Shown here piece after piece: positions 3,768-63,449 of a stretch of 64,000 nucleotides of DNA (position 1 is the stretch's first letter; every line of letters begins with the position of its first letter). The stretch comes from an uncultured Christensenella sp. Its GTDB lineage: Bacteria; Bacillota; Clostridia; Christensenellales; Borkfalkiaceae. Below the pieces are notes generated by a model. It did no database searches and had not been told where the DNA came from. It saw only the letters and a list, made by a program, of their open reading frames with translations. The DNA is taken from the NCBI GenBank assembly GCA_910583855.1, contig CAJTYL010000008.1:33253-97252 (forward strand), written 5' to 3'. Position numbers and translations under genes: made by a program.

Positions 3768-3843
3768 AATTTATACCTCACTTTTTCCCCTACCCTCCCG
3801 ACGGTTCGGGAGGGCGGAGAGAATTGTGTTTCCTTAAAAAGCC

Positions 3844-12800: not shown

Positions 12801-15800
12801 GGATTGCGCCCTCCGCAAGTTCGAAGCGTGCTCCGCTTTCAACGTACACGCCGCCGCCTTGGGTAGCTTCATTCTGTTGAATGTACGCAACTTCCATCTT
12901 GAACAAGCCGCCTTCTTCAATATGAACGCCGCCGCCTTGTTCGGATTTACCGCCCGTAATAATACCCGTGGTACCGGAAATTTCCAGCGTGCCTTTAACG
13001 TAGAACACGCTGCCCGTTGCCGTTATGGTACTGAGGTTACGGTCGATTGAATAGTTATTGAGGTTTAATACGATGTACGCGCCCGAAGGAAGATAAAGCG
13101 CACCGTCATCGGTGAAGCCTACGCCCTCGCCGAACGAGCCGTTTTCTGCGCGCCAAGCTTCAGCCAAAACGAACGTTATGGGGTTGCCGTTATTGTCCAA
13201 GCTTGCTTGAACCGCAGCGTTCCATGCGTCTTTAAGGCTGACTTGAAGATAAATTTCGCCGTTGACGATTGCAACCACGGTACCTAATACGTCGCCGAAG
13301 AAATATGCTTTTTCGGTTTCGCCGTTGCCGTTTGTCGTATAGTCTTCGGTAATTTTATCTTTACCCGTTAAACCTATGCTTGCTCCGTCGGTTAATTTTC
13401 CGACGATTTTGATTGTTTTACCGTTATATAAATAGAGGTTACTGTCGGAATCGTTTAGCTTATTGCCGCTGATTATGGGGTTGCCCTTTACCGAGAAAGT
13501 ACCCGCATTGAGGTATACGCCGCCGCCGTTTACTGTTGCGGTATTGCCCGAAATAGAGCCCGAAGAAATGGTAACCGCACCGCCCGCAACGTACATACCG
13601 CCGCCGCGCGCAGACGTGTTCGTAAACGTATCCTCGCCGCCGATTGCGCCGCCCGACATCGTAAATACGCTGGTGCTGCCCGCAGCAACGTAGATTGCGC
13701 CGCCGTATTCAACTGCGCTGTTGCCGATAATTTCGCCGTCTTCGAGATTGAACGTACCGCCGTTGACGTATACCGCGCCGCCGCTTGTCGATGCTTCGTT
13801 GTAAGCAAGCGAACCGTCAGCCATGGTAAACGCGCCGCTTGCAGTTACATAAACCGCGCCGCCGTAGTTAGCGGAGTTGTGCGTAAGCGCGCCTTTTTCC
13901 GATACGGTCAGCGCACTGCCCGCGCCGGTCACATACGCCGCGCCGCCGTTTGCCGAAGCAGTGTTATAAGTTAAGAACGCATCGCCCGAAACTTCTACCT
14001 TTGCACCGCCGTATATTGCAACTGCGCCGCCGGAAGTCGTTGCGGTATTTTCCGATACCATTACAGAGCCGTTCAAGCTCAAATGCGCAAAGCTGCCCGT
14101 CAAGTACGCGCCGCCGCCGATTGTTGCGCCGTTTTCGCTAATCGACCCGCCCGAAATCTCTACGGTCGAAGTATCGGTGCTTCCGTCAATGCGAAGTCCG
14201 CCGCCGTATCTTGCGGAAGTATTTTTTGTTATTTTTGCCGTGCCGGACACGGTTAAATTACCGTTAACTACGAATAATCCGCCGCCGCCCGCTGTTTCGG
14301 TTGCATCGGTTGCACGGTTTTCGGAAATGTTACCGCCCGAAATTTCAACCGTGCTTGCGTTAACGTACACGCCCGCACCGCTGCCCGCAGTATTTTCAAC
14401 GATGTTACCGTCGGTCATTGCAAAGGTGCCGTTGCCGATATTGTATACGCCGCCGCCCAAAGTTGCGGTGTTGTTGGAAAGTTTGCCGCCCGAAAGGGTA
14501 AACTCGCCGATACTGTATACGCCGCCGCCGTTTGCCGCGGTGTTAGTTACGATTTCACCGTCGCTAACGATGAACTTATCGTTGTTGTATACGCCGCCGC
14601 CGTTATTTGTTGCGGTGTTGCCCGAAATGCTGCCGCCGTTTAATTCGAAGGTGCCGCTTAAATTATATACGCCACCGCCATAACCCGCTTCGTTGCCGCT
14701 TATTTCGCCGCCGGACATCGTATATTTGCCTTCTTCGAATAAGTATACGCCGCCGCCGTTTTCCGCAGTGTTATTGTTAATTTTACCGCTAATAATGCGG
14801 GCTGTGCCCATATTAGCAACGCCGCCGCCGTTGGTTGCCGTGTTGTGGGAGATTTCGCCGCCGCTCATTTCGAACGTACCGGCCGTCCATACGCCCGCGC
14901 CACGGTTTGCCGTGTTGTAGCTGATTTCGCCGCCGGACATTTCAAAGATACCGCCCGCTACCGCAGCAACGCCGCCGCCGTCGTATGTTGAAGTGTTTTT
15001 GTTGGCTTCGGAACCGCCTATTGTGCCGCCCGTCATTCTTAACGTTGCGCCGTCGGCAACGAATACGCCGCCCGCGCCGTTAGCTTGATTCCTACCGATT
15101 AAGCCCGCGGAAACGGTCATAGTACCGCCGGCAATGTACGCAGCGCCGCCACGGTTTGCCGTGTTATCGGTAATTTCGCCGCCCGCAACAGCCGCCGTAC
15201 CGCCCGTCATATACAGTGCGCCGCCGTTTTCCGTTGCCGTGTTGTTTTTAATAGAACCGTCGGTAATTTTGAAGTTACCGCCCGTCATATACAGTGCGCC
15301 GCCGTTTGCAAACGTGCTACCGGATATTTCGCCGCCCGTCATGTTGAACGTGCCGCCCGCCAAATATACGTTGCCGACTGCGTCGCTGTCTTCTTGGGGA
15401 ATATTGGTCGAAATCACGCCGTCACCCGTAAGAGTGAACGTACCGCCGTCTACATAGACGCTTGCGGCCTTGCCGCTTGCAACGTTGGGCAAGTCGGTCC
15501 CTTCATACGACCCGCCGATAGCGCCGCCGGCAATTGTAAGCTGAGTAGCCGCGCCCGTCATATAGATGCCCGCGCCGTTTACGGCTTCGTTTGAAGCAAC
15601 CAAACCGCTTTGCATTACAAGCCTACCGCCGGACATATACACGCCGCCGCCGTTTGTCGCAATATTGTATCCTATTACAGTAAGCTCGCCGCCATCTAAA
15701 GTTACCGCGCCGCCGGCAATGTACACGCCGCCGCCGTTTTCCGCAGTATTTAATAAAATTCCGCCGTTGACAAAATCAACGTTACCGCTTTCGACGTACA

Positions 15801-18800
15801 AACCGCCGCCGTTGCCGCTTGCGGTATTATTATTAATAGAGTTTAATAAGTTTTCATTATCAAAGGTGAAATCAAGCGTAATTCTTCCGCCACGCACATA
15901 TACGCCCGCGCCGTTTAATGCTGTGTTGTAGGAGATTACTCCGCCGTTCATTTCGAAGTTGCCGCTGTTGTCAACGTATACGCCGCCGCCGTACGATTGA
16001 GCGGTGTTCCCGCTATCTTCGGCGCCGATAATACCGCTTTCGAACACAAACGTGCCGTCCGAGATGAACACGCCGCCGCCGTTTTCGGCTTCGTTCAAAG
16101 TAATTTGGCTATCGCTGTCTCGAAGCACAAACTCGCCGTTGCCGTCGATATATACGCCGCCGCCGTAGCTTGCCGTGTTTTCGGTTATTACGGTATTTTT
16201 CTTTATGGTAAAGATACCGCCCGCAACATACACGCCGCCGCCGTTTTCCGCGTTACCGCCCTTAATGGTAGACGTTACGCGAGAGTCGAACACAAGGGTT
16301 CCTTCCACACGCATTACGCTTCCCGAAGTTCCGCTTCTGTCCAAAGTAAAGCCGTTACCGTCGAATAAGATATCCGCGCTTACGGGCACAAGAATGGTTC
16401 CGTCGTTCGTAAAGCCTATGCCTTCGCCGAAAGAGCTGTTTTTAACCGTCCAATCGAAGTAAAGGACGAAAAGTTCTTGCGTGCCGTTGTTCAAGCTGGC
16501 TTGAACTGTTTCGTTCCAAGCCAAAGCAACGTCGAATCTTAAAACGATTTCTTCGTTAATGTAGTTTAACGTAAGTCCGCGATTGTCGGACACGAAATAT
16601 TTCGCAATGTCCGCTTCGCTATGTCCCGCGGTTGTAAAACCGTCGGTAAGCACGAAATCTTCTTGGGTAATACAACCGCTTATGCCTATCTTCGCGCCGT
16701 CGCTGAGCTTAGCGGAGAAAGTAATTGCGCCTTCGACGTCCACATAAACGTTATTTTCGAATTCGCGGTAAGTATTACCGTATATATAAGCCGTGCCGCC
16801 GAGTTTGAACTCGCCGTCTCTGACCCAAACTCCGTTGCCGTAGGGGGTTGTGGCAGAGTTTTCGGTAATTCTACCCGCAGTCATTTCGAAAGTGCCGCCG
16901 CCTAAATAGACGCCGCCGCCTTTATTGGTAGAGGTGTTGCCGCTTATCACGCCGCCCGTCATTTTAAACGTTTTGCCGGTAAATACGGCGCCGCCGTTTG
17001 AAGTTGCCTTGTTATTGACAATTTCGCCGCCCGCCATAATAAACGTGCCGCCATTGTGCACGCCGCCCGCAACGTCCGAAGCGGTATTATCGGATATAGT
17101 GCCGTCGTTCAATGTATACGTTCCGTCAGCTTGAACATTTACGCCGCCGCCGCTTACGCCCTTGTTATGGACAATTTCGCCGCCGGTTTGGGTAAAGGTT
17201 CCGCTGAAAACGCATAAGCCGCCGCCGAATGCCGCAGTATTGTATGATATGGTACCCGCCGACATAGTACCCGTGCCGGTACCGTCTATAAGTACCGCGC
17301 CGTGACTTTGGGCTGTGTTGCCGTTACCCTCTCCGCCGATGACGCCGCCGGACATCTCGAATGAGCCCGCACGCACGGCAACCGCTCCGCCGTGGGTAGC
17401 GCTGTTGCTTGTTATTGCGCCGTCGGACATAACGAATTTACCGCCGCTCACATATACGCCGCCGCCGTAGCTAGCGGAGTTGTTGGTAATTATAACGTTA
17501 TTGTTGTTTAAAGTGAACGTACCGCCCGTAACCGCAACTGCACCGCCGCCGTAAACGCCGCTTGTAGCCGCTTTGTTGTAGGAGATGGCGCCGCCCGTGG
17601 GTGTAAACGTGCCGCTAGACATATATACGCCGCCGCCATCGCGCAATGCGGTGTTTGCAGCAGCGGCGCTGCCGCCTATCGTACCGCCCGTCATATTAAA
17701 TGTACCGCTGTGATAAGCCACCCCGCCGCCGTTTACCGCAGAGTTATTTGTAATAGTACCCGCGGAGAAGTTGAACGTGCCCGTCCATAAAAACACACCG
17801 CCGCCGGTACCGGTACTTGAATTGTACTTGATAGCCGCGTTTGCACCATTCATCGTAAACGTGCCGTTTGAGCTTATTTCAACGCCGGCGCCGCTTGACG
17901 AAGTGTTTGCATAGGAAGCGTTCGGTCCGCCTATTGTACCGCCCGACATAGTTACGGTACTGTTATGATATACGAATATGCCCGCGCCGCCCACGCTTGT
18001 AGTTGTTGTAACGGTTTTGTTGGCGTAAATCTGACCGCCCGAGATATTTACCTTTACCGCCGCCGTAGTTGCGGTTGAACTTGCCGCACAGATACCGCCG
18101 CCGTAAACGGCCGTATTGTATGCAACGATGGCTGTGCCGGACATGTTAAGGGTTGAACCGGTGTATGCGTATATGCCGCCGCCCCAACTTGTCGCCGTGT
18201 TATATGAAATAGTACCGCCCGAGAATGTTGCCGCGGTAGTGCTTGCCAAGAATAATCCCGCGCCGCTGTTTGCCGTGTTGCCCGCGCCGCCGCCGCCTAT
18301 GGTGCCGCCCGTCATTTTGAACGTTGCAGTGCCGACCACATACACGCCGCCGCCGTTGGTTCTTACAGAGTTTCCTCTGATTACGCCGGCGTTCATATTG
18401 AAGGTGCCGCCGCCCACATACACGCCGCCGCCGTTGGAACCAACGGTGGTGCTGCCGGTATTGGTTGCGGTATTATACTGAATGGCGCCGCCATTCATAT
18501 TCAACGTGCCGCCGTCCATATGTATGCCGCCGCCGTTTGTTACTGTTGTTGCCGTTGCCGACGTTGCTTGGTTCCTTGAAACGTAACCGTTGGCGCCGAT
18601 AGTCATGGTACCGGCAACCATATACACGCCGCCGCCGAGGGGCGCCTTGTTTGCGTAAGCGTTATCGCTTGCACCGCCTATATAACCGCTTGTAAGATTA
18701 AAAGTTCCGCCGGCAATGAATACGCCGCCGCCCACATTTGCCGCAGTGCATGCAATTACAGATGTTGCGCCCGGACTGGTTCCGCCGTTTATTGTATATG

Positions 18801-21800
18801 TTGCACCGACGTTTATCCAAACGCCGCCGCCGTTTACGGTTGCCGTATTATAATGAATTCCGCCCAAGGTGTGGGTGAGCGTACCGGTGTACACACATAC
18901 GCCGCCGCCGTTTTTGGCTTGGTTATAAGTGATATTGGAGGACATAGTGCAAGTGCCCGTAGTCTGAATAAGAACGCCGCCGCCGTATTCCGACGCCGTA
19001 TTTTTATTGGCTGTGCTGCCTCCGATATTGCCGCCCGTAAGCGCAAATTGTGCAGAGCCCATAACAGCTACGCCCGCACCGTTGGTTGAAGAGTTTGTAG
19101 CTATAGTACCGGCAGACATGGCAATTTTTGTGCTGTTGGTAAGAAACACGCCGCCGCCGTGCGACGTAGCCTTATTACTGTTAATTAACGCGTTTGCATT
19201 ATTAATCGTAAACGTACCGGCATTTACAAACACGCCGCCGCCGTTTGAAGTCGCCTTGTTATTGGTTATTTTACCGGCAGAAAAAGTATAGCTTGCATTC
19301 AAATACAAACCGCCGCCGTTTGCCGCGGTGTTGCCGCCGCCGCCGGAACTGCTTATGTAACCGATACAGCTGTTGGCTTGCATTTTAAACGTACCGCCGT
19401 TATAATACACGCCTCCGCCGTTTGCCGTTGCGGTGTTGGAGTGTATCCAAGAATACCCCATATTGAAGGTTCCGCCCGTAATATACACGCCGCCGCCGTT
19501 TTTTGCTGTGTTGTTGCGCAACGCAGTGCCGGTACCGTTTAAAACATATGTACCGCCGCTTATATATACGCCGCCGCCGTTTTCGCTTGCAGTATTATAA
19601 TAAGTTACTCCGTTTGCCGTAGAGCCCGAAGCGATAGCTATACCCTCTGTAAACGAACCGCTTGCTACCGCTATGCCGCCGCCGTTTTTTGCTGTGTTGT
19701 AAGAAATACCGCCGCCGGTAAAAGTAGACGCACCCGTAGAACCTTGATACACGCCGCCGCCGCTTCCCGTTGCAGTATTTTTATTTGCTGTACTGCCGCC
19801 GCCGATAGTACCGGCAGACATATGAAAGACGCCCGAACTTACAGTCGCCACGCCGCCGCCGTTTACTGCGGTATTCTTAATTATCAACGCATTTGCGTTA
19901 TTCATTGTCAGCGTACCGTTTTCCACGCAAATGCCGCCGCCGTTTGAAGTCGCGGTGTTGCCCGTTATGGTGCCGCCCGACAAAGTAAGATTGGCATACA
20001 TATAAATGGCGCCGCCGCTTACTGAAGCCCGGTTACCCGAAAAGGTGCCGCCCGAAATGGTATGCGTACCGGTCGTGCCGTTATAGAAAATAGCGCCGCC
20101 GTGGGTTCCGCTGTTGTTTGAAATTGTGCCGCCGGATATCCTTGTTGTTGCAGCACCCTGTGCATATACCGCGCCCGCCCATTTTGTAGCGGTGTTATGG
20201 TCGATAATACCGCTTGTCATGGTGAATTTAGAAGCATTTACACCTACGCCGGCACCGCTGCCGCTTGATGTATTGTACTTGATGTTACCGCCGGACAACG
20301 TGAATTCACCGCCATTGGTTACATATACGCCACCACCAGCACCAGCGCTATTAGCATAGGTGGAATCACTGCCGCCGATAGTACCGCCGGTCATATTGAA
20401 CGTGCCGCTATTATAAACACCGCCGCCGTTGTTTATAGCGTCGTTATGGTTAATATAACCGCCCGACATATTAAACGTGCTGCTATTATAAACGCCGCCG
20501 CCGTAAGCCGCTGTGTTGTGGTAAGAACTATAGCCTATATAACCGTTTGACATTGTAAACGTGCCGCTATTATAAACGCCGCCGCCGCCGTTTTTTGCTG
20601 TGTTGCCGTCTATATAACCGCCCGACATATTAAACGTGCCGTTACTATAAACATACAAGCCGCCGCCGTAGCTTTTCGCAGTGTTGACATCAATTTCACC
20701 GCCGGTTTTAGTAAAGGTTCCGTTGAGAACGCATAAGCCGCCGCCGTAATCCGCTGTGTTGCCCGAACCCGAAGTACCTTCCTTACCAATATAACCGGAA
20801 GACATTGTAAAAGTGCCGTAGCCCACATACACGCCGCCGCCGTCATTTGTTGCAGTGTTTGTTAATATATGAGCAGAAGTGCTGGTTATTCTAAATTGGT
20901 TGGTTTTGCTATCCGAGTTACCGCCCATAGCAACGCCGCCGCCATTTCTTGACGAGGTGTTACCGGCAATAATTGCAGAACCTTTCATCTCGAACGTGGC
21001 GTCCCACATATAGACACCGCCGCCGTCATAAGTCGCCGTGTTTGCAGCGTTGCTACCGGTGGAATTTCGTCCGATAACGCCAGCGGACATAGTGAACGCA
21101 GCTTTATACAAGTTTACGCCGCCGCCGTAACGTGCCGTATTGGAATAGATATAACCGCCCGTCATTGTAAACGTGCCGCTGCTCGAAACATACACACCGC
21201 CGCCGCCGTAGTTGACGTAAATTTCAGTAGTAACAACCTTATTGCTATATATATTGCCGCCCGACATATTAAACGTGCCGTTATTATAAACGCCGCCGCC
21301 TTGGGTGGTTGCGGTATTGTTGTAAATACTGCCGCCCGACATATTAAACGTGCCGTTGCTCGAAACATACACACCGCCGCCATAAGTCGAAGTGTTCTCA
21401 TAAATACTGCCGCCCGACATATTAAACGTGCCGCCGCTGACGTTTACTGCGCAAGCAGTGCTGTTGTGTATAAGCCCGCCGCCCATATAGACGCTGCCGC
21501 CGGCATTAATTTGGAAAGCCTTCATAGCAATGCTCGAAACGCTGTAAAAGTTAATTTGATTTGACGGATTGCTTACACAAAAATTAATTCTACCGCCATT
21601 ATTAACAGTAAATGCTGTAAGGGGGCTGTAAACAAATATATATGTAGCAGAAGAAACAGTAGCGTAAATGTTAAGGGTACCGCTTACGCTTATTGACCCC
21701 CCAGCCTGAAAAAGAAGCGAATCTGAAATAGCAATATTCAACGTTATACCCGCGGGTACCGATAAAGCAGTATTAACGGTTTTATTCGAACTACTATCCG

Positions 21801-22095
21801 ATATAGCTATCGTATTGCCCGAGGTTGCAACCGCCGTGCTCCATTGGTTAATTCCGGTATAAGTTGCCGTTGCAGTGGCTTCGATTTCGGGGTTTTCTAT
21901 TGTGCCGTCCCCGTTTGAATTGCCGCCGACTATTGCGGAGGACGCGTCTTTTTCGGGCGCGGTAATTTCCGCGGACGAATTCGCCCCCGTTAAGTCGTTT
22001 GTAGAAAGTCCAAATAACGCTATAGCTGCGCTTATAAAAAGCGTTGCTATCAGTATAATTAATATACTCAGCTTACCGTATCGTGACTTTTTCAT
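3844..22095 (-). CDS. Giant (6083 aa) membrane-anchored surface protein / putative fibrillar adhesin: N-terminal signal-anchor, three head plus beta-helix cassettes, Ig/MBG-like repeat stalk, C-terminal TM helix with acidic tail
   Basis: Single uninterrupted 18252-nt ORF in the track. The RBS context AAGTGAGGTATGAATTATG is nearly identical to that of the neighbouring giant gene. The N-terminus MKKSRYGKLSILIILIATLFISAAIALFG is hydrophobic. It has massive GGGVY/GTFxMSGG repeats. The C-terminus is WKLWLIIAAAIVLAAIIIALVIILVKRRKSSDDDGFYDDVAESDL, with no LPXTG motif. Confidence 0.93.
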   Translation of the reverse strand: MKKSRYGKLSILIILIATLFISAAIALFGLSTNDLTGANSSAEITAPEKDASSAIVGGNSNGDGTIENPEIEATATATYTGINQWSTAVATSGNTIAISDSSSNKTVNTALSVPAGITLNIAISDSLLFQAGGSISVSGTLNIYATVSSATYIFVYSPLTAFTVNNGGRINFCVSNPSNQINFYSVSSIAMKAFQINAGGSVYMGGGLIHNSTACAVNVSGGTFNMSGGSIYENTSTYGGGVYVSSNGTFNMSGGSIYNNTATTQGGGVYNNGTFNMSGGNIYSNKVVTTEIYVNYGGGGVYVSSSGTFTMTGGYIYSNTARYGGGVNLYKAAFTMSAGVIGRNSTGSNAANTATYDGGGVYMWDATFEMKGSAIIAGNTSSRNGGGVAMGGNSDSKTNQFRITSTSAHILTNTATNDGGGVYVGYGTFTMSSGYIGKEGTSGSGNTADYGGGLCVLNGTFTKTGGEIDVNTAKSYGGGLYVYSNGTFNMSGGYIDGNTAKNGGGGVYNSGTFTMSNGYIGYSSYHNTAAYGGGVYNSSTFNMSGGYINHNDAINNGGGVYNSGTFNMTGGTIGGSDSTYANSAGAGGGVYVTNGGEFTLSGGNIKYNTSSGSGAGVGVNASKFTMTSGIIDHNTATKWAGAVYAQGAATTRISGGTISNNSGTHGGAIFYNGTTGTHTISGGTFSGNRASVSGGAIYMYANLTLSGGTITGNTATSNGGGICVENGTLTMNNANALIIKNTAVNGGGVATVSSGVFHMSAGTIGGGSTANKNTATGSGGGVYQGSTGASTFTGGGISYNTAKNGGGIAVASGSFTEGIAIASGSTANGVTYYNTASENGGGVYISGGTYVLNGTGTALRNNTAKNGGGVYITGGTFNMGYSWIHSNTATANGGGVYYNGGTFKMQANSCIGYISSSGGGGNTAANGGGLYLNASYTFSAGKITNNKATSNGGGVFVNAGTFTINNANALINSNKATSHGGGVFLTNSTKIAMSAGTIATNSSTNGAGVAVMGSAQFALTGGNIGGSTANKNTASEYGGGVLIQTTGTCTMSSNITYNQAKNGGGVCVYTGTLTHTLGGIHYNTATVNGGGVWINVGATYTINGGTSPGATSVIACTAANVGGGVFIAGGTFNLTSGYIGGASDNAYANKAPLGGGVYMVAGTMTIGANGYVSRNQATSATATTVTNGGGIHMDGGTLNMNGGAIQYNTATNTGSTTVGSNGGGVYVGGGTFNMNAGVIRGNSVRTNGGGVYVVGTATFKMTGGTIGGGGAGNTANSGAGLFLASTTAATFSGGTISYNTATSWGGGIYAYTGSTLNMSGTAIVAYNTAVYGGGICAASSTATTAAVKVNISGGQIYANKTVTTTTSVGGAGIFVYHNSTVTMSGGTIGGPNASYANTSSSGAGVEISSNGTFTMNGANAAIKYNSSTGTGGGVFLWTGTFNFSAGTITNNSAVNGGGVAYHSGTFNMTGGTIGGSAAAANTALRDGGGVYMSSGTFTPTGGAISYNKAATSGVYGGGAVAVTGGTFTLNNNNVIITNNSASYGGGVYVSGGKFVMSDGAITSNSATHGGAVAVRAGSFEMSGGVIGGEGNGNTAQSHGAVLIDGTGTGTMSAGTISYNTAAFGGGLCVFSGTFTQTGGEIVHNKGVSGGGVNVQADGTYTLNDGTISDNTASDVAGGVHNGGTFIMAGGEIVNNKATSNGGAVFTGKTFKMTGGVISGNTSTNKGGGVYLGGGTFEMTAGRITENSATTPYGNGVWVRDGEFKLGGTAYIYGNTYREFENNVYVDVEGAITFSAKLSDGAKIGISGCITQEDFVLTDGFTTAGHSEADIAKYFVSDNRGLTLNYINEEIVLRFDVALAWNETVQASLNNGTQELFVLYFDWTVKNSSFGEGIGFTNDGTILVPVSADILFDGNGFTLDRSGTSGSVMRVEGTLVFDSRVTSTIKGGNAENGGGVYVAGGIFTIKKNTVITENTASYGGGVYIDGNGEFVLRDSDSQITLNEAENGGGVFISDGTFVFESGIIGAEDSGNTAQSYGGGVYVDNSGNFEMNGGVISYNTALNGAGVYVRGGRITLDFTFDNENLLNSINNNTASGNGGGLYVESGNVDFVNGGILLNTAENGGGVYIAGGAVTLDGGELTVIGYNIATNGGGVYMSGGRLVMQSGLVASNEAVNGAGIYMTGAATQLTIAGGAIGGSYEGTDLPNVASGKAASVYVDGGTFTLTGDGVISTNIPQEDSDAVGNVYLAGGTFNMTGGEISGSTFANGGALYMTGGNFKITDGSIKNNTATENGGALYMTGGTAAVAGGEITDNTANRGGAAYIAGGTMTVSAGLIGRNQANGAGGVFVADGATLRMTGGTIGGSEANKNTSTYDGGGVAAVAGGIFEMSGGEISYNTANRGAGVWTAGTFEMSGGEISHNTATNGGGVANMGTARIISGKINNNTAENGGGVYLFEEGKYTMSGGEISGNEAGYGGGVYNLSGTFELNGGSISGNTATNNGGGVYNNDKFIVSDGEIVTNTAANGGGVYSIGEFTLSGGKLSNNTATLGGGVYNIGNGTFAMTDGNIVENTAGSGAGVYVNASTVEISGGNISENRATDATETAGGGGLFVVNGNLTVSGTAKITKNTSARYGGGLRIDGSTDTSTVEISGGSISENGATIGGGAYLTGSFAHLSLNGSVMVSENTATTSGGAVAIYGGAKVEVSGDAFLTYNTASANGGAAYVTGAGSALTVSEKGALTHNSANYGGAVYVTASGAFTMADGSLAYNEASTSGGAVYVNGGTFNLEDGEIIGNSAVEYGGAIYVAAGSTSVFTMSGGAIGGEDTFTNTSARGGGMYVAGGAVTISSGSISGNTATVNGGGVYLNAGTFSVKGNPIISGNKLNDSDSNLYLYNGKTIKIVGKLTDGASIGLTGKDKITEDYTTNGNGETEKAYFFGDVLGTVVAIVNGEIYLQVSLKDAWNAAVQASLDNNGNPITFVLAEAWRAENGSFGEGVGFTDDGALYLPSGAYIVLNLNNYSIDRNLSTITATGSVFYVKGTLEISGTTGIITGGKSEQGGGVHIEEGGLFKMEVAYIQQNEATQGGGVYVESGARFELAEGAIRGNSADEGAGVYVEEGGTLNMTGGAIGGTGYANEATNGAGVYSNGTVKLSGGYIRNNTASENGGGAYVAGGEFIAKGGYIGGTATTFANTAVNGAGVYVNGSTFEMTGGTIGYNTGTWGGGVYCNYGKVIMTGGKISGNSVGANGGGGVYVNGGTFEMTGGTIGGTANDANIGASGAGVVIGASGVFTMNGGSITGNNGSAGGGIYLTSGTFILNDGTIANNTATVNGGGALITEYGLFEMNGGEISGNDSNKGGGMCVFGTAEISGGEISGNTAVNGGGVHVENGGELIINDGAISGNEAVNGGGIYNNGGTVQMNDGIISGNIAVYDGTQLSDNTKNGDGAGIMLANGGSFTMNGGVITANKADTLGGGVYSHTAANTVIITGGVISANTASYGGGVYVNGGTFEMSGGEITDNNATESGGGLRAYASTITLTGGKISNNTSAGFGGGVYLAGNEVVFNMTGGEISGNSTESDGGGVYIYTKSTMNLSGGKITGNRAAVNGGGIYVSNVEGATLNVSGSPIVSGNTANGAESNIYLAADQVITVTGMLAVNGMIAWLGVTMADPSKKKFTLGFAEKNTAYNPNLRPETVFFSDDTDYMVGLEDGEAVLKDNDYSQTSLIWQLSKDGGKTWVSIDAPYYSLRYKAGESYAIRALNSEFNTVAFTWATNGAGEAIDALNFKGIGSYKFVINSEEYINPSLTFEVLPATLYWQYSTDEGRTWFDLTVNTLIYTGATYNIRACVYDDGYVPVKVFTETMKDVGDYEFTVDEDLYENPVLNFSITTRYIDVEWNFGDALGNATDGYYWNYDGLVHAPVAVLGGVSNELAGVDLSYGYAWSGGSSYAAAQSYAGAYTLTVGLKTADKNIVLSNTSVQYKINGITLSLVWTDEDGNEGDEFTFEYDSEKHGVNFVLSGVITGDTVEPYVTYASRSGKELAEAPTAVGYYTATVKLPANCYNYVLDKTYTCQIVITQKTVAVDWIGNDDGTYAWTFNGQGKAPVASIINPITGEALNEAYTVEYAPVAENGNIGVYSKQQPVNAGKYIVRLTLTNNDGNFILDETTTTQRFTIEKLGVNITWTGGKNFNYDQDKDVYFWYYDGEEHSVEAKVELNGDVYKDGVIISSLDLVRTDAQTALTGVNSATAAVELANTAFNANFYIDGSASQVYEVRKAVITSVVWTDAFKNSYETGDTAEFDFGKVVGAEGPGFVAIANGTLELVVSYSKSYEGEWVVDEQIGYTAYARLSTADAANYEFADGAEYESLTFFIKSVGGFKTPIDVTWVVFINEYEYVALEQYLTDGGFVYNGNVQSPTPIYLRENGDYEILALNANSIGADAGKYTARVKPSSVYDIKEEDFACAYEIKKLDVVINWQDGQYDSNTTYSYVYSGKAQAPYAYATGEGEFDFTTVNVTVEGNVNAGDYLAKAIVGDNFNIVDGATQRYTVSKLGIDAGKIVWDFIGAGASGDADNGWYWVYDGKEHSPAAKITLDFITLELLVTGKTSEIGVHTAYAVLNSSLTAHNNFYLTGTASTTFEIVQVKIGQVYWEDDDGHVYEDGKGGNTGLVFTYNGDENGQAPKAYYLDESGDKVYLTVTVIGGTAINAGNYSAYVDIESVPSCTFSINAKELEAEWSNLNVTFNGSEQKPEVTLTGAELTEGEDYVVTGYVKAGVYKVTIKFINANYTVAEENASCEFVIEKITITEDDFEWSDTGYDAEKDGYFWLFDGNPHAPTLTISYTIGEGGDAVEVTFEVGYTGVTSTVGTHTVTAYIKSAKIGELDVTDSFAFSADMEYVITAQTVTIDWDFGDAKHDEEKDIYFWTYDGSKHAPKAYLAYTDENNEVQRFKDEDGNDIELTVYGAETNARDKAYTATAELSEDYVLADGASATQQYYINKATIEVNWDFGELEADENGVYTWTYGDDITPKAYIRNENGENGAELTVTGFETDAGTHTLTLMQSDGNYEFANENDSAKTYVIKPMTVYVIWYGVGGYEENDTVNFEWDYVDYDTAIAPTAYLAYKDENGELQLLLDKDGNAIPVEVSGGLAEVGEHTAQAVDTFVNYDFAEEFTKNYKVLAKDLAESGFKWTDENAQVSEDGLTFTYEYSGGEIMPTPTSNVKDLEFNVTITNAAGEPVSVITEVGTYKVTVTCRDENYTVPEDMKTVTVIVTAKKVAVEWDETPLVYNGEKQQPKAYYTDVAGNKIELEVTVDGDSANAGTKYQATASLDTTNYELDEETKTYEFEIAQKEIEVKYTWEDVTYDRNKHAPKPEITVSASEKDGLTVVYEITKNGVKVAGDGEKVTEAGEYVIKVSLEGTAAGNYKLVNAEYEFNINKVALTVTAKDQTFDYGADAPEFTTDFATFEGLLADEADEVKAALADVISQWFRCAYVNTTVPGEYKIYIDAAWLNEYLNNYEVTGVNGKLTVNPAEGALVWVGDGESGADFTYNGNANLPEAYYYDSTGRKHELTVKLATYDEESGEYSVIDGEAVNAGSYFAVIVDANGNVIKADGNYTFENYGTAFKINKLEITVNVKDLQFTYGDVNLDELEAILGLGNGWTYGDNKPVDGDDLNIKLTIEGSYDDGNYLANGVYALNVGWNEEDFNDNYSLKVVNEGDGELVVEKAEIIVDYDEKDGYVYDAYGVLGSTDGYVSDFVTNTKDFLKLAGYQDAAVTAYFKLVDENDHAPDSDQYTGDIPEGLTEEGEYLFNFMIRVDNHETLYGRLLVKVSYAEYYLYVTVDGSKTLTETYGFETAEDFAKTLLESGYANYDEDLNRVISKETFLEWVTAKVIDENGNEVSGRLPVGNYKVIFALNENADQRYSIYKASTRTVAIEITKYVLDIDWGDESNLNYTYDGAAHMPVVKVEGITLDDGCKVSDGVYEITVNGEKVKVTVTVDGDFTAVGGHSLLVTVEGENFAISEENALRSVSINEPANEGEVPGTTVGASIEDWKLWLIIAAAIVLAAIIIALVIILVKRRKSSDDDGFYDDVAESDL
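3907..3981 (-). other. C-terminal transmembrane anchor of the giant protein, followed by a 20-aa basic-then-acidic cytoplasmic tail (3847-3906)
   Basis: A 25-residue hydrophobic run, WKLWLIIAAAIVLAAIIIALVIILV, is followed by KRRKSSDDDGFYDDVAESDL and the stop. Confidence 0.8.
4040..10950 (-). repeat. Stalk of roughly two dozen tandem ~85-95-aa Ig/MBG-like repeats
   Basis: Recurrent pattern W.....F.Y.G....P.A.......G.....L.V.......AG.Y.A.......NY.L.......F.I.KA. One unit (LTVTAKDQTFDYGADAPEFT...YKIYIDAAWLNEYLNNYEVTGVNGKLTVNPA) resembles the MBG (YGX-type) domain. The domain count is estimated from length, not counted. Confidence 0.75.
11230..12960 (-). repeat. Beta-helix cassette 3 (preceded by head domain AWNAAVQASL...FGEGVGFTDDG...LNLNNYSIDR at ~12960-13230)
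   Basis: AWNAAVQASL is encoded at about 13200-13230. Rung repeats run to GGGIYVSNVEGATLNVSGSPIVSGNTANGAESNIYLAADQVITVTG (about 11170-11290). Confidence 0.85.
13450..16270 (-). repeat. Beta-helix cassette 2 (preceded by head domain AWNETVQASL...FGEGIGFTNDG...FDGNGFTLDR at ~16270-16525)
   Basis: AWNETVQASL is encoded at about 16497-16526. Rungs such as GGGVYIDGNGEFVL and GGGVFISDGTFVFESG follow. The cap is SNLYLYNGKTIKIVGKLTDGASIGLTG near 13370-13450. Confidence 0.85.
16750..21480 (-). repeat. Beta-helix cassette 1: long array of ~22-25-aa rungs (GGGVYxxxGTFxMxGGxIxxNTA)
   Basis: Translation from about aa 205 to 1780 is almost entirely rung repeats. It ends with the cap NNVYVDVEGAITFSAKLSDGAKIGISG (KLSDGAKIGIS encoded near 16680-16712). 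Boundaries are approximate. Confidence 0.85.
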
Positions 22096-56914: not shown

Positions 56915-57049
56915 TTAAGCCGTAAGATGTTTTCTGCCTTTATTTCTTCTTCTTTTTAACGTTTTTCTGCCGGCAGTCGTTGCCATTCTCTTTCTGAACC
57001 CGTGTACCTTGCTTCTCTGTCTTTTCTTGGGCTGATAAGTTCTTTTCAT
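56915..57049 (-). CDS. rpmH: 50S ribosomal protein L34 (44 aa), not in the ORF track
   Basis: Hand translation [55 protein letters not shown] lies upstream of the ATG at 57047-57049. Confidence 0.93.
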
Positions 57050-57148: not shown

Positions 57149-58261
57149 TTAATCGTTTGAGCTTGTCCTTACGGGCAAAATAAGGTACAATTTGCCTTTG
57201 TTTTCCTTGTTTTGGCATATAAACGGCTGAATATGATTGTTGAAAGACAGAGTTATTTCGTCTTCCTGCAAGGCGTTTACGGCGTCAATTATGAACTTGG
57301 AGTTCATTGCAATCCTTACGTCCTTGCCGTTTACGTCCGCCTTCACAGGCTCCTGTACGTTACCTATTTCGGAGGTTGAAGAAATTTCAATTTTATCTCC
57401 GCTTATATCAAAAATTATAAGGCTGTTTTTGTCGCTTCTGACGAGGATCGCCGCCCTCTCTATACTTGCTTTAAGCTTTTCCTTTTCAACCGTCACTTCC
57501 GTAACGAAATTTTTGGGGATAATGTTTTCTTTTTTGATAAAATCTCCGCCGTACAGCCTCGAAGTCAGCACCGTATTGTCGCAGGCAACCAAAATTATAC
57601 CGCTCTGCACGAATATTTCGGTCGTACCGTCACCGTCGGGTATCATTTTTTCGATTTCGTTAAGCGTTCTTGCGGGGCAGATTATTTCCATATTACCCGT
57701 TGAAGACACTACTTCACCCTTGACGGTGGCAAGTCTGAATCCGTCAAGCGACGTCACGCATATCTCTTTTCCGTTTATAACGAACTGGCAACCTTTTAAA
57801 ATAGGTCTTGAATCGTCCGTAGCGCAACAAAACGACGTTGAGCGGATAAAATCCTTCAGTTCCGTCGTTTTCATAACGAAACTGTTCTCGGTAATATCCA
57901 AATCTATACGGGGGAAGTCGTCTGCGGATAAAACCTGCATAGTCGTCTGACTGTCGGCGTATCCGATTTCCATTTTGTTTCCTTCTGTAGACAAAGAAAT
58001 TTGCACGCCTTCAAGTTTTTTAATGAAATCCGCAAAATATTTACCGGGAACGCAAACATTTCCCTCTTCGTAAATTTCTGCTTTTATGGTCTTTATAATA
58101 GAAATTTCACCGTCCGTTGCCGATAAAGTCAGGCAATCGTTCTTTGATGAAAGCTTGACGCATTCCAAAACGGGTACGGTCGTCTTTGAAGAACAAGCTT
58201 TTACAACCTTAAGCACTGCATCCGATAAATCAATCCCTTCACAAACACACTTCATAGTCAA
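57149..58261 (-). CDS. dnaN: DNA polymerase III beta subunit (sliding clamp)
   Basis: 370 aa with a three-domain clamp pattern (LSDAVLKVVKACSSKTTVPVLECVKL...). It sits next to the DnaA-box region. Confidence 0.9.
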   Translation of the reverse strand: MTMKCVCEGIDLSDAVLKVVKACSSKTTVPVLECVKLSSKNDCLTLSATDGEISIIKTIKAEIYEEGNVCVPGKYFADFIKKLEGVQISLSTEGNKMEIGYADSQTTMQVLSADDFPRIDLDITENSFVMKTTELKDFIRSTSFCCATDDSRPILKGCQFVINGKEICVTSLDGFRLATVKGEVVSSTGNMEIICPARTLNEIEKMIPDGDGTTEIFVQSGIILVACDNTVLTSRLYGGDFIKKENIIPKNFVTEVTVEKEKLKASIERAAILVRSDKNSLIIFDISGDKIEISSTSEIGNVQEPVKADVNGKDVRIAMNSKFIIDAVNALQEDEITLSFNNHIQPFICQNKENKGKLYLILPVRTSSND

Positions 58262-58350
58262 TCTCCGTTATTTTATCTTTTACTTATTAATTGTATTAAT
58301 AAAGATTTATTTAGTAATTATAATAGTAGGGGCTGGGGAAATGTGAATAT
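58262..58350. other. oriC-like unwinding module: AT-rich stretch (58262-58311), DnaA-trio-like triplets TAG TAA TTA TAA TAG TAG (58312-58329), GC cluster GGGCTGGGG (58330-58338), DnaA box TGTGAATAT (58342-58350)
   Basis: The order and strand of the elements match the box / GC-cluster / 5'-TA(G/A)-3' trio / AT-rich layout known from B. subtilis incC upstream of dnaN. Confidence 0.6.
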
Positions 58351-58449
58351 CTTTTCCCTAACGTACAATTTCATAAATATAATAACAAATTTCAGGGCAA
58401 AATGCAACAGAATGAGGGCGTTTTAGGGCATATTTCAAAATAAAAAAGG

Positions 58450-58592
58450 TGTGAATAACCGTAGTATAACTTCGTTGATAAAATGTGCAAAAAAGTTGAT
58501 TATGTTAATCTAAGTTTTATAATATCGTCCGTAAAAAAATAAACGACGCTCAAAGCGCAGGTTTTCCACAAAATAAAGTTGATAGTGGAAAA
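58450..58592. promoter_or_regulatory. Additional DnaA boxes upstream of dnaN
   Basis: TGTGAATAA (58450-58458, 8/9 to TGTGGATAA), TTTTCCACA (58562-58570, 8/9 to TTATCCACA), and AGTGGAAAA (58584-58592, 7/9). Confidence 0.55.
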
Positions 58593-58600
58593 CTAAAAGG

Positions 58601-58629
58601 TTGATAAAACACAAAAATGTTGATATAAT
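58601..58629 (+). promoter_or_regulatory. rsmG promoter, leaderless geometry (TTGATA-17-TGaTATAAT-6 nt-ATG)
   Basis: TTGATA 58601-58606, TGA TATAAT 58621-58629, TTAGTT, then ATG 58636. Confidence 0.55.
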
Positions 58630-58635
58630 TTAGTT

Positions 58636-59304
58636 ATGTTTTTTGAAGGCTACGAAGAATTTTCCGAAAAGTTTGAACTTTTTAAAGAAATTTTGAAAGA
58701 ATATAATAAAAAATGCAATTTGACGGCAATTTGCGACGAAAAAGAAGTGTATATCAAGCACTTTTTTGACAGCATAAAGCCGCAAAAAAACTTCCCAACG
58801 GGCGCAAAAGTTGTTGAAATAGGCTCAGGCGGAGGGTTTCCTTCAGTTCCCTTAAAGATAGTCAGAGAAGATTTAAACTTTACTCTTATAGAAAGCACCG
58901 GCAAAAAATGCGAATATCTGAAGCATGTTGTTGATAAACTCGGGTTTAAAGACGTACAAGTGCTTAATATACGCGCAGAGGACGGCGGGCGGGATAAGAA
59001 GTTAAGGGAGAGATTTGACGCCGCCACGGCAAGAGCTGTAGCAAGGCTGAACACGCTGTGCGAATACTGCCTGCCGTACGTCAGGTTAGGCGGTAGATTT
59101 ATAGCCTATAAAGGGGATGCGGACGAAGAGATTAAAGAGAGTGAAAACGCCGTAAAAATACTTGGCGGAGAAATAGAAACGGTTGAAAAATACGACCTTT
59201 TGGAAGGCTTCGGAAAGCGTACCGTAATAGTAATAAAAAAGGTGAAAGAAACGCCCGAAAAATATCCCCGCGGCAGAGGATTAGAGCGTAAAAAACCTCT
59301 TTAA
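58636..59304 (+). CDS. rsmG: 16S rRNA (guanine527-N7)-methyltransferase
   Basis: YNKKCNLTAI....KHFFDS and VVEIGSGGGFPSVPLKIV SAM motif. Length is 222 aa. Confidence 0.9.
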   Translation: MFFEGYEEFSEKFELFKEILKEYNKKCNLTAICDEKEVYIKHFFDSIKPQKNFPTGAKVVEIGSGGGFPSVPLKIVREDLNFTLIESTGKKCEYLKHVVDKLGFKDVQVLNIRAEDGGRDKKLRERFDAATARAVARLNTLCEYCLPYVRLGGRFIAYKGDADEEIKESENAVKILGGEIETVEKYDLLEGFGKRTVIVIKKVKETPEKYPRGRGLERKKPL

Positions 59305-59374
59305 AAAACAGGTAGCGCATAGAATTTTTTCAAAAAATCCGAGAGGGCGCAAAGAAAACCTGAAGGAAGAAATT

Positions 59375-59824
59375 ATGTATAAAAATTGCGCCTTTACAGG
59401 GCATAGAATTTTGCAAAAAGACTTCGATTATAACCTTCTCGACAGAGTAATTTTCAACCTTATTCAGGGCGGTACAAAGAACTTTTTTTGCGGTATGGCA
59501 ACGGGCTTCGATTTAGCTGCGGCGGAAAGCGTTTTGCAGTATAAAAAGGACTTTGATATTAAGCTTATCGCCTGCATCCCCTGTCTAGGGCAAGAGAAGA
59601 ATTTTAACAAAAAAAACAAGGAAAAATATACAAAAGTTTTAGAAAAATGCGATGAAAAGAAGGTTCTTTCCGAAAAATATTTTGACGGATGCATGTTCGT
59701 CCGCGACAGGTTCATGGTGGATAATTGCGACGTGCTCGTCACCTATCAGAGGAGAAAAAGCGGCGGCACCTCCTACACTGTGAACTACGCAAAATCAAAA
59801 GGAATAAATCTTATTGAACTTTAA
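59375..59824 (+). CDS. SLOG-superfamily protein, DUF1273 (YpsA/YoqJ-like), copy 2
   Basis: MYKNCAFTGHR, NFFCGMATGFDLAAAE, ACIPC, and RDRFMVDNCDVLVTY...GGTSYTVNYA. It is collinear with copy 1 at 36506-37006. The RBS GAAGGAAG lies upstream. Confidence 0.75.
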   Translation: MYKNCAFTGHRILQKDFDYNLLDRVIFNLIQGGTKNFFCGMATGFDLAAAESVLQYKKDFDIKLIACIPCLGQEKNFNKKNKEKYTKVLEKCDEKKVLSEKYFDGCMFVRDRFMVDNCDVLVTYQRRKSGGTSYTVNYAKSKGINLIEL

Positions 59825-59916
59825 AAACGCCGCAAACTAAGGCGGAAATATTTAACCGACAATAATTAAGCGATAATATAGACCGCGACGAAACGAATTA
59901 AAAGCGTAAAACACGA

Positions 59917-59950
59917 GGCGCAGAACTTAAAAAGTTCTGCGCCATTTTTT
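59917..59950 (+). terminator. Rho-independent terminator after SLOG copy 2 (also 3' of the convergent yyaC)
   Basis: GGCGCAGAAC (59917-59926), loop TTAAAAA, GTTCTGCGCC (59934-59943), then ATTTTTT. Confidence 0.8.
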
Positions 59951-60003
59951 ATTATAAACTAATTGCGGTTTGCGGTAATTTAACGCCGCTTGGATAGCAA
60001 CGG

Positions 60004-60588
60004 TTACACTGATTTTTTATCAAAAATATTTACTTCGTTCCCCCAGCTCCCCTTTTGTAAGTTTTCTAATATATATGAAGAAACGCCTTCTGCAATTATA
60101 GAAGCCATTTTGTATATAATATTCAGACGGGTTGCGGAAAAAAGCGAGTAATTAAACACCGACTTTTCGGCTACGATTCCCATTACGGACGCGTCGCCGA
60201 CGGTTGCGAGCTTCTTGTTTGCCCCGCTTCCCGGCTTAATTCCCGTTGGGGTAAGCTTAATTAGACCTATATCACCCGCAATGCCGACTGCAGCGTCAAT
60301 TGCTATTATCGGACTGTCCGGGTGGGTGGCGCGAAGAAATTCGTTCATATATTTAACTTCATGCGCCGTTATGGGTTTTGCAAGCGTACCGTAAACGTAG
60401 CAATTCAGCCCTGAAAGCTGCTCTTTCAGCATTGTTCCCGTAACAGGTCCCAAACTATCTCCGACAGATAAGTCGCTTCCAATACAGAGAACCGTCGGAG
60501 TTTTTGAAAATTTGGTTAACATTTTCCGCAACGTCAGGCAAATGCCCTGCGGAGCCAATGCATTGTATAAATTAAACGAATATTCCAT
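60004..60588 (-). CDS. yyaC: YyaC-family protein (putative sporulation protein / DUF1256 protease-like)
   Basis: PTVLCIGSDLSVGDSLGPVTG and IIAIDAAVG match my recollection of YyaC. Its origin-proximal position is as in B. subtilis. Confidence 0.75.
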   Translation of the reverse strand: MEYSFNLYNALAPQGICLTLRKMLTKFSKTPTVLCIGSDLSVGDSLGPVTGTMLKEQLSGLNCYVYGTLAKPITAHEVKYMNEFLRATHPDSPIIAIDAAVGIAGDIGLIKLTPTGIKPGSGANKKLATVGDASVMGIVAEKSVFNYSLFSATRLNIIYKMASIIAEGVSSYILENLQKGSWGNEVNIFDKKSV

Positions 60589-60727
60589 AAATACTGCTCT
60601 TAAAATAATAATATCGGTTAAATTATTGACCGATTACCGAAAATTTATAATTCTTATATATAATAATATCTTTAAATTTTCAGTAAAGTTACTCAAAAAA
60701 TCGCTCTCACGGGCTGAAAACAAAAAG

Positions 60728-61011
60728 TTTTCCACAAAATCCACAGCGCAAAATAGAAAAAAACAGTCGTGAAATGCTATAAAGCGGAATTTTATCCACA
60801 AAAAATGCACAAATTAATCAACATAAGGGGATTACTCGAAAATTTTGATAAAAACTTCAAGTAATTGTCCACATAAAAATTGCCGTTTTCAGTAAAAATC
60901 GGTAAAAAATGCCACATTTTTGAAAAATTATCCACAATTGCTAAAAATTGAGCGGTATACGTTTCACGTGAAACATAAAAAAGCTTAAAAAATTTGGTTG
61001 AATGTTCCACA
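60728..61011 (+). promoter_or_regulatory. Cluster of six same-orientation DnaA boxes (second oriC-like cluster), flanked on the left by a very AT-rich stretch (60589-60720)
   Basis: TTTTCCACA 60728-60736 (8/9), AAATCCACA 60737-60745 (7/9), TTATCCACA 60792-60800 (9/9), TTGTCCACA 60865-60873 (8/9), TTATCCACA 60928-60936 (9/9), TGTTCCACA 61003-61011 (7/9). Confidence 0.7.
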
Positions 61012-61154
61012 TGAAACATTTTTATTAACTAACTACGCGTAGCGCAATGCAAAATTTAATGATTTTCGACAAAAAGGCTGTTATTTGTTTAATAGACTGT
61101 GTGTGAAAAGTCTGTAAAATTTAAGTGATATATTAAACTTTTTTAACCAAATAC

Positions 61155-61184
61155 TTGCAAACAGGTAACTTTATCTGTTATAAT
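61155..61184 (+). promoter_or_regulatory. Candidate ftsH promoter (TTGCAA-18-TATAAT)
   Basis: TTGCAA 61155-61160 and TATAAT 61179-61184. Confidence 0.4.
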
Positions 61185-61214
61185 AAACTAAGTATCATAA
61201 TAAGGAGTCATATT

Positions 61215-63377: not shown

Positions 63378-63449
63378 TATGTTTCCCGTGAAACCGTTGT
63401 CCGTAGGGAGTCGTTGAAAAGTACTTTAAAGAAGAGAGAGTTGAGGGTT

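Follow-up and report, generated by a model that had tools for sequence, protein, structure and literature searches.

A probable core unwinding module of the chromosomal replication origin beside dnaN in Christensenellales ('Borkfalkiaceae')

Introduction

Where does replication start in a chromosome on which dnaN has no dnaA beside it? This question is raised by a 64,000-nucleotide stretch of DNA from an uncultured Christensenella sp., called here the window, in which a 380-bp spacer at 58256-58635 (intergenic region 1, IGR1) has dnaN on its left and rsmG (gidB) on its right. An earlier note, made from the letters of the window and its open reading frames (ORFs), had proposed the core of a replication origin in this spacer. 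Our analysis indicates, with a rough probability of 0.85, that 58268-58350 is the core unwinding module of the Christensenellales/'Borkfalkiaceae' chromosomal replication origin, made up of a basal unwinding system (BUS) and a DNA unwinding element (DUE). Sequencing runs that contain window DNA are mouse-gut and faecal metagenomes, and when full texts were searched for the genus name, no work on replication in the Borkfalkia family came up.

The module upstream of dnaN

The model for such a module is the basal unwinding system in the incC region of Bacillus subtilis oriC, for which Richardson 2016 is reportedly the source. In vitro, DnaA unwinds a B. subtilis scaffold that consists of TTATCCACA, AATCCACA, GGCC and the triplets CTA CTA TTA CTT CTA CTA (Pelliciari 2021, PMC8287927), and its DnaA-trios read GAT GAT AAT GAA GAT GAT (PMC8287927). 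In general, a BUS has a DnaA box with at most two mismatches, a spacer of 0-16 bp (mode 10-13) and at least three consecutive trios with a central A (consensus 3'-GAT-5'); an additional, less well conserved proximal box may lie inside the spacer and does so in 57% of predicted BUS (PMC8287927).

On the dnaN-sense strand of the window, positions 58350→58312 read ATATTCACA-TTTCCCCA-GCCC-CTA CTA TTA TAA TTA CTA. The first of these elements, ATATTCACA (58350-58342, minus strand), corresponds to B. subtilis box#6, has no more than two mismatches to TTATCCACA and points its 3' end toward the trios. The earlier note had placed a DnaA box at 58342-58350, and it is there: in the plus-strand reading it is TGTGAATAT, with 2 mismatches to TGTGGATAA. 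From this box to the first trio there are 12 bp, within the 0-16 bp range. The spacer was described in the earlier note as a GC cluster GGGCTGGGG at 58330-58338 followed by AAA; the letters and coordinates are right, but the stretch is better divided into a 4-nt GC cluster (58330-58333) and an 8-nt degenerate box (58334-58341). This second box, the equivalent of box#7, reads TTTCCCCA and has lost the core A (CCAC to CCCC) that is found in the family consensus WTTCCACM and in AATCCACA of B. subtilis. The GC cluster agrees in position and length with GGCC in B. subtilis and CGCG in Listeria, and its consensus in the family is GCCC.

The six triplets TAG TAA TTA TAA TAG TAG at 58312-58329, five of which fit TA[G/A], were also correctly reported before. 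Read away from the box, they begin with three consecutive trios that have a central A (3'-GAT GAT AAT-5') and continue with ATT, AAT and GAT, the fourth (ATT) being off-consensus. Opposite the trios, the other strand (CTACTATTATAATTACTA) has TnnT repeats resembling those by which the B. subtilis DnaD recognition element is defined (PMC10201434). Order and polarity had been likened to B. subtilis incC, and the comparison extends to a position-for-position match that includes the spacing (scaffold in PMC8287927; Clostridioides difficile trio in PMC7561715). The trio of C. difficile oriC2, 5'-CACCTACTACTATTACTACTATGA (PMC7561715), has the same polarity.

Between the trios and the ribosome-binding site of dnaN lies the candidate DUE. 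The A/T-rich stretch at 58262-58311 stands where the earlier note put it and has an A+T content of 84%. The segment 58268-58327 is the least stable 60-mer in the whole 64 kb, with a nearest-neighbour dG of -56.6 compared with a window mean of -84.8 (sd 6.6); an AT-rich, unstable stretch beside the boxes is one of the features by which a DnaA-dependent oriC is recognised. The composite of a box with at most two mismatches, a spacer of 8-16 bp and at least five of six [C/T]TA trios occurs a single time when both strands of the 64 kb are searched, and when the intergenic region was dinucleotide-shuffled 5000 times, the composite arose once.

Conservation among relatives

Species-representative genomes were scanned with DnaN, which gave 62 related loci (47-94% identity) and one actinobacterial outlier. 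By these relatives, the window comes from a Coproplasma-like gut bacterium of the Christensenellales/'Borkfalkiaceae'. Upstream regions were examined in 60 cases, namely the window and 59 loci with at least 200 bp upstream of dnaN. For the alignment, 58 regions (56 distinct sequences) were anchored on the two-box motif with at most three mismatches, and the trio columns lie outside this anchor.

Each of the 60 regions contains a recognisable module, which lies 74-180 bp ahead of the dnaN ATG; in the two regions outside the alignment (L014 and L034) it is more degenerate or shifted by one base. Among the 56 distinct sequences, trios 1-3 are N-T-A on the box-sense strand in 91, 89 and 91%, respectively, whereas the same three triplets read NTA in at most 9% in the +1 frame and in 0-21% in the +2 frame. 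The distance of 12 bp from box to trio is fixed throughout these sequences. The position of box#6 is occupied by TTATCCACA, TTATACACA or TTATCAACA in the relatives. In box#7 (consensus as above), the letters T, T, C and C are near-invariant, these being columns used for anchoring, and the closest relatives of the window have CCCC in place of CCAC. Neither the upstream flank nor the AT-rich tail is conserved position by position, although the tail is still AT-rich.

The gene order rsmG <- | -> dnaN-rnpA-yidC-jag is kept in all but two of the 56 loci that reach the upstream gene; in L053, rsmG and dnaN point the same way. Phase-locked conservation over such a wide divergence points to a working element and not to a relic or a generic promoter.

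Strand asymmetry and gene orientation

The cumulative GC skew of the window has its minimum at about 58 kb and then rises. In the family average, the sign changes exactly at the dnaN ATG: all 1-kb bins upstream of it have negative skew and all those downstream have positive skew. Coding-strand skew was compared in all loci, with forks departing from IGR1, and amounts to +0.092 for co-directional genes vs +0.019 for head-on genes (P = 3e-27). Because this difference has the same sign on both arms, a replication-type component of about 0.04 can be separated from the coding-strand effect, and it takes opposite signs on the two arms of the family loci. In the window alone, the component is about -0.04 on the left and about +0.02 on the right. 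The co-directional/head-on split replaced an analysis of GC skew at third codon positions, which was dominated by a preference for C-ending codons and therefore uninformative.

The switch of gene orientation at this locus, which had been noticed before, is borne out: approximately 86% of coding bases are co-directional in the window, and 70-74% per arm across the family. The change in read depth to be expected across 58 kb is about 4% at most.

Distal boxes, the second box cluster and parS sites

IGR1 carries further DnaA boxes upstream of the module (Table 1). Those proposed earlier at 58450-58458, 58562-58570 and 58584-58592 are indeed present, as TGTGAATAA, TTTTCCACA and AGTGGAAAA with 1, 1 and 2 mismatches. 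Altogether the 380 bp contain 8 boxes with at most two mismatches compared with 1.6 expected, a number reached in none of 3000 shuffles, and 2 boxes with at most one mismatch compared with 0.12 expected (P = 0.005). Seven of the 8 share one orientation (58342-58350 and six at 58450..58626), and relatives have distal boxes at similar offsets. Repeated GTTGATA words at 58473-58626 are DnaA-box variants of the TTATCAAC type; together with the use of TTATCAACA as box#6 in many relatives, this suggests that the family tolerates A at box position 6. At 58562-58592, two DnaA-type boxes stand face to face as an inverted pair, TTTTCCAC-N15-GTGGAAAA.

A second spacer, IGR2 (60589-61214), lies between a DUF1256/yyaC-like gene and ftsH, and holds the stronger cluster. 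Four boxes with at most one mismatch, two of them perfect, occur within 209 bp compared with 0.18 expected, and four were reached in none of 3000 shuffles. The boxes at 60728, 60792, 60865 and 60928 are spaced by about 64, 73 and 63 bp. A DnaA-dependent oriC is expected to have at least three DnaA boxes with a mean spacing below 100 bp, and such clusters are found in both IGR1 and IGR2. In IGR2, no trios follow the boxes on the correct strand. A BUS was considered there and rejected: the tandem boxes TTTTCCACA and AAATCCACA with GCGC (60728-60749) mimic the order box#6, box#7 and GC cluster, but the next bases are AAAATAGAAAAA and trios are absent. The segment 60728-60749 may be a decayed or auxiliary module. 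Behind the boxes, an AT-rich patch at 60641-60700 is the second least stable 60-mer in the window.

A cluster of 4-6 boxes is kept in IGR2 of most relatives that retain the DUF1256-ftsH spacer. In most relatives of the genus Borkfalkia, no second cluster was seen within 10 kb, and the dnaN module is kept. The BUS thus appears to be the constant part and the partner cluster clade-specific. One Borkfalkia-like relative has densely packed DnaA boxes, four of which are perfect, in a spacer about 4 kb upstream of dnaN and near the contig end (L054:1308-1514), and this group may be the counterpart of IGR2 in that genus.

The IGR2 cluster, with its boxes and without trios, looks like the oriC1-type partner half of the origin and not like a competitor. 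Given a stronger cluster at a distance of 2.2 kb, two of whose boxes are perfect, the origin is probably bipartite, with rsmG, ypsA and the yyaC-like gene looped in place of dnaA. In a canonical bipartite origin, the two clusters are separated by dnaA; here rsmG, ypsA and DUF1256 stand between them. The two-cluster locus may work like a bipartite origin, but its architecture is not the canonical one.

Three parS-like sites (16-bp palindrome TGTTTCACGTGAAACA, 1-2 mismatches) occur in the window compared with 0.39 expected, all of them in the last 3.1 kb, and both the pair and the third site are kept in relatives. A weak DnaA 'box' at 61003 was rejected as it belongs to one of these sites. Together with parAB, the parS sites lie 2.7-5 kb from the module, as is expected of a ParABS centromere near an origin. 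IGR2 also contains TTCGACA (61065-61071), the complement of the Spo0A-box core TGTCGAA, and one such 7-mer is about the chance expectation. The organism is apparently spore-forming, with ypeB, sleB, spoIIR and the yyaC-like gene near IGR2.

Gene context

For dnaN, the ATG at 58255 is a likelier start than the TTG at 58261 chosen in the earlier note; it is preceded by a ribosome-binding site, GGAG (58263-58266, minus strand), and public gene calls agree with it in giving 368 aa. Downstream of dnaN on the same strand follow rpmH (56915-57049), rnpA, yidD, yidC and jag. The two DnaA-box regions are separated by rsmG, ypsA and the DUF1256/yyaC-like gene (58636..60588), and to the right of IGR2 lie ftsH and, beyond the window on same-species contigs, parA, parB, ypeB and sleB. 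The neighbours rpmH, rnpA, yidC, jag, rsmG and yyaC are classic origin-proximal genes of Firmicutes.

A putative promoter of rsmG (Table 1) ends with TGaTATAAT 6 nt short of the rsmG ATG and shares bases with two weak DnaA boxes. Judged by this 6-nt gap, the rsmG mRNA may be leaderless, as the arrangement suggests. Between the convergent ypsA and DUF1256 genes, a hairpin with a 12-bp stem and T-runs on both sides (59917-59943) is probably a bidirectional terminator. A search of the spacers against Rfam found no structured RNA, one tRNA being the sole match in the window. At the far left, two giant ORFs stand in tandem on the minus strand (3-3770 and 3844-22095). The one of 6083 aa combines a C-terminal membrane anchor and a single MBG_2 domain with GGGVY-type repeats that number in the hundreds; the other (above 1256 aa) has a signal-peptide-like start and a frame open past the left window edge. 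Both are probably giant surface adhesins.

Table 1. Features of the dnaN-rsmG locus and its surroundings (window coordinates)
Feature	Position	Strand	Remarks
DnaA box, box#6 equivalent, ATATTCACA	58342..58350	-	2 mismatches; faces trios; 12-bp spacer follows
Proximal degenerate DnaA box, box#7 equivalent, 8 nt, TTTCCCCA	58334..58341	-	AATCCACA in B. subtilis
4-bp GC cluster	58330..58333		GGGC on plus strand, GCCC on box-sense strand
DnaA-trios, 5'-TAG TAA TTA TAA TAG TAG-3'	58312..58329	+	read away from box 3'-GAT GAT AAT ATT AAT GAT-5'
AT-rich candidate DUE	58268..58311		between trios and dnaN ribosome-binding site
Distal IGR1 box TTATTCACA	58450-58458	-	plus-strand reading TGTGAATAA; 1 mismatch
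Distal IGR1 box TTATCAACG	58473-58481	-	
Distal IGR1 box TTTTGCACA	58484-58492	-	
Distal IGR1 box TTTTCCACA	58562-58570	+	1 mismatch
Distal IGR1 box TTTTCCACT	58584-58592	-	plus-strand reading AGTGGAAAA; 2 mismatches
Distal IGR1 box TTATCAACC	58599-58607	-	
Distal IGR1 box ATATCAACA	58618-58626	-	
Promoter-like site of rsmG, TTGATA, 17 nt, TG-n-TATAAT	58601..58629	+	11/12 consensus matches, extended -10
Second DnaA-box cluster, oriC1-like	60728..60936	+	2.2 kb from IGR1 module
IGR2 box TTTTCCACA	60728	+	
IGR2 box AAATCCACA	60737	+	abuts preceding box
IGR2 box TTATCCACA	60792	+	
IGR2 box TTGTCCACA	60865	+	
IGR2 box TTATCCACA	60928	+	
parS-like site CGTTTCACGTGAAACA	60960-60975		IGR2
parS-like site TGTTCCACATGAAACA	61003-61018		IGR2; 43 bp from first
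parS-like site TGTTTCCCGTGAAACC	63380-63395		after ftsH, before parA
dnaN, DNA polymerase III beta clamp, 368 aa	57149..58255	-	Pfam DNA_pol3_beta, beta_2, beta_3, E 5e-35 to 1e-27
rsmG	58636-59304	+	Pfam GidB 9.5e-46
ypsA-family SLOG gene	59375-59824	+	Pfam YpsA 6e-18
DUF1256/yyaC-like gene	60004-60588	-	Pfam DUF1256 8e-40

Proposed mechanism

DnaA binding, melting, looping and origin firing at this locus are proposed by analogy with work on B. subtilis and C. difficile (PMC6669920, PMC7561715, PMC8287927). DnaA-ATP would dock via domain IV on the box#6-like site (58342-58350), aided by the weak abutting box (58334-58341), and further DnaA would be delivered by looping from the distal IGR1 boxes and probably from the strong cluster at 60728-60936. 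The AAA+ filament would then extend from the boxes over the 4-bp GC cluster onto the plus-strand trios, from 58329 down to 58312, stretch the trio strand and open the neighbouring AT-rich stretch (58268-58311). Helicases would be loaded at 58268-58311 and forks would depart both ways, the leftward fork through dnaN-rpmH-rnpA-yidC-jag and the rightward fork through rsmG ... ftsH-parA-parB.

Absence of dnaA and alternative explanations

Several points count against the proposed origin core. The most obvious is dnaA itself, which was not found from -58 kb to +15 kb in the window and the same-species contigs. The proximal boxes of the window are weak, as box#6 has 2 mismatches and box#7 is without its CCAC core, and the fourth trio violates the central-A rule. 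The raw skew is in large part due to the coding strand, and the skew minimum is a local one, with 6 kb to the right of the module in the window itself, or 15 kb if same-species contigs are added. Finally, homologous loci are non-independent samples.

The search for dnaA was made in several ways. The window ORFs contain no DnaA domain according to Pfam, and tblastn with B. subtilis DnaA did not find dnaA in the window. Likewise, tblastn found no dnaA in the 62 related loci within ±10 kb or up to the contig end, and the positive control, the Actinomycetota outlier with a canonical dnaA-dnaN pair (L063), was matched. An oriC is sought adjacent to indicator genes, usually dnaA; at this locus dnaN, rpmH, rnpA, yidC, jag, rsmG and parAB are adjacent and dnaA is not. 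Adjacency to dnaA is usual but not defining for an origin (PMC10225481). That boxes of perfect consensus have been kept throughout the family speaks for the existence of a canonical DnaA in it.

Among the alternatives, the one that survives best, though we hold it to be improbable, takes the module for a DnaA-controlled promoter of the divergent dnaN and rsmG, or for a relic of an ancestral oriC2, and places the active origin elsewhere, for example beside an unlinked dnaA. The absence of dnaA from the neighbourhood would fit this explanation. Moreover, dnaN needs its own promoter in IGR1, DnaA boxes commonly regulate transcription, and promoter-like hexamers (TTCACA, 16 nt, TATTAT; 58347-58320, minus strand) overlap the module. 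However, -10 and -35 elements leave unexplained both the identity with the BUS layout and a threefold N-T-A periodicity with a free first base at a fixed distance of 12 bp, and the would-be -10 is without its final T in most relatives. A relic would not stay in phase down to 47% DnaN identity, and the skew, the orientation switch and parS/parAB all fall at the IGR1 locus.

It is quite unlikely that the origin lies in this neighbourhood but melts in IGR2 (60589-61214), the dnaN-proximal module being auxiliary only. Better boxes at another locus, which the earlier note had named as a point that would speak against IGR1, do exist in the two-perfect-box cluster at 60728-60936, but this cluster has no trios and resembles a partner. 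Besides the two perfect and two one-mismatch boxes, IGR2 offers the abutting box pair with GCGC (60728-60749) and the unstable segment 60641-60700. Against melting there, GCGC is followed by AAA ATA GAA AAA, no box of IGR2 has trios after it on the correct strand, and the AT-rich stretch is on the wrong side of the boxes, all of which face away from it. In addition, most Borkfalkia-genus relatives retain the dnaN module without a second cluster within 10 kb, and both B. subtilis and C. difficile melt in the dnaN-proximal half (PMC6669920, PMC7561715).

A further version, to which we give little credence, is that the ancestral oriC1-dnaA-oriC2 cassette lost dnaA between its halves in this family and stays the active origin, with a loop that does not depend on the gene it contains and with DnaA supplied in trans; in the extreme form, the family would have no dnaA, and another protein would read the boxes and trios. 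As for the history of the locus, one may speculate that an oriC1-dnaA-oriC2-dnaN cassette was inverted beside rpmH and that dnaA was then lost or relocated. Chance resemblance in AT-rich intergenic DNA can practically be dismissed: the single elements are short and degenerate, and (NAN)n runs are common in AT-rich DNA, but the composite arises in 1/5000 shuffles, is unique in the window and is conserved in about 60 genomes.

Comparison with known origins

The proposed origin core is most similar to the incC BUS of B. subtilis, with which it shares a 9-nt box, an abutting 8-nt box, a 4-nt GC cluster, a 12-bp spacer and trios that start GAT GAT AAT, followed by an AT-rich stretch and dnaN, and preceded by distal boxes in the same spacer. 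The 12-bp spacer is also that of Listeria. In contrast to B. subtilis, box#6 (2 mismatches) and box#7 (CCAC to CCCC) of the window are weaker, and the fourth trio is ATT. The setting also differs. The earlier note had likened the region to the one between dnaA and dnaN in B. subtilis; in the window it is between rsmG and dnaN, its upstream neighbour is the divergent rsmG and not dnaA, and no dnaA occurs within -58/+15 kb.

Origins that lie apart from the initiator gene are found in other bacteria. The oriC of Synechococcus elongatus adjoins dnaN. Like this dnaA-unlinked origin, whose BUS has been tested (PMC8287927), the window locus is separate from the initiator gene and has a BUS-type core of box, spacer and trios. 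The oriC of E. coli, between mnmG and mioC (as cited in PMC10225481), is likewise apart from dnaA. Both of these bacteria belong to Gram-negative lineages whose boxes are arranged differently, and E. coli makes use of IHF and Dam, whereas the core in the window is of the Firmicute type in its nucleotide layout.

Bipartite origins of the oriC1-dnaA-oriC2 kind (B. subtilis, C. difficile, H. pylori; PMC7561715) resemble the locus in having two clusters about 2 kb apart, with trio and DUE only in the dnaN-proximal one and a partner cluster that is rich in boxes and without trios (PMC7561715). In B. subtilis and C. difficile, melting takes place in the dnaN-proximal half (PMC6669920, PMC7561715). 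Unlike in these origins, the looped DNA would consist of rsmG, ypsA, the yyaC-like gene and two parS sites, with no dnaA. BUS-type origins and dnaA-unlinked origins are already known (PMC8287927; PMC10225481), and the locus is mildly unusual for a Firmicute in that dnaA is absent from it and the loop is without dnaA.

Significance

The proposed module would give an origin annotation at the nucleotide level for an uncultured and widespread gut family, the 'Borkfalkiaceae' and Coproplasma-like Christensenellales of mouse, chicken, rabbit and human gut, for which no origin has been described. It would serve as an anchor for metagenomic growth-rate (peak-to-trough) estimates, and would help to orient metagenome-assembled genomes that cannot be rotated to dnaA. 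It would also be further evidence that distant Clostridia have preserved the B. subtilis layout of box#6, box#7, GC cluster and trios nearly to the base. In this family the layout appears to survive the departure of dnaA from the locus, which bears on the question of whether the dnaA gene itself matters in bipartite origins.

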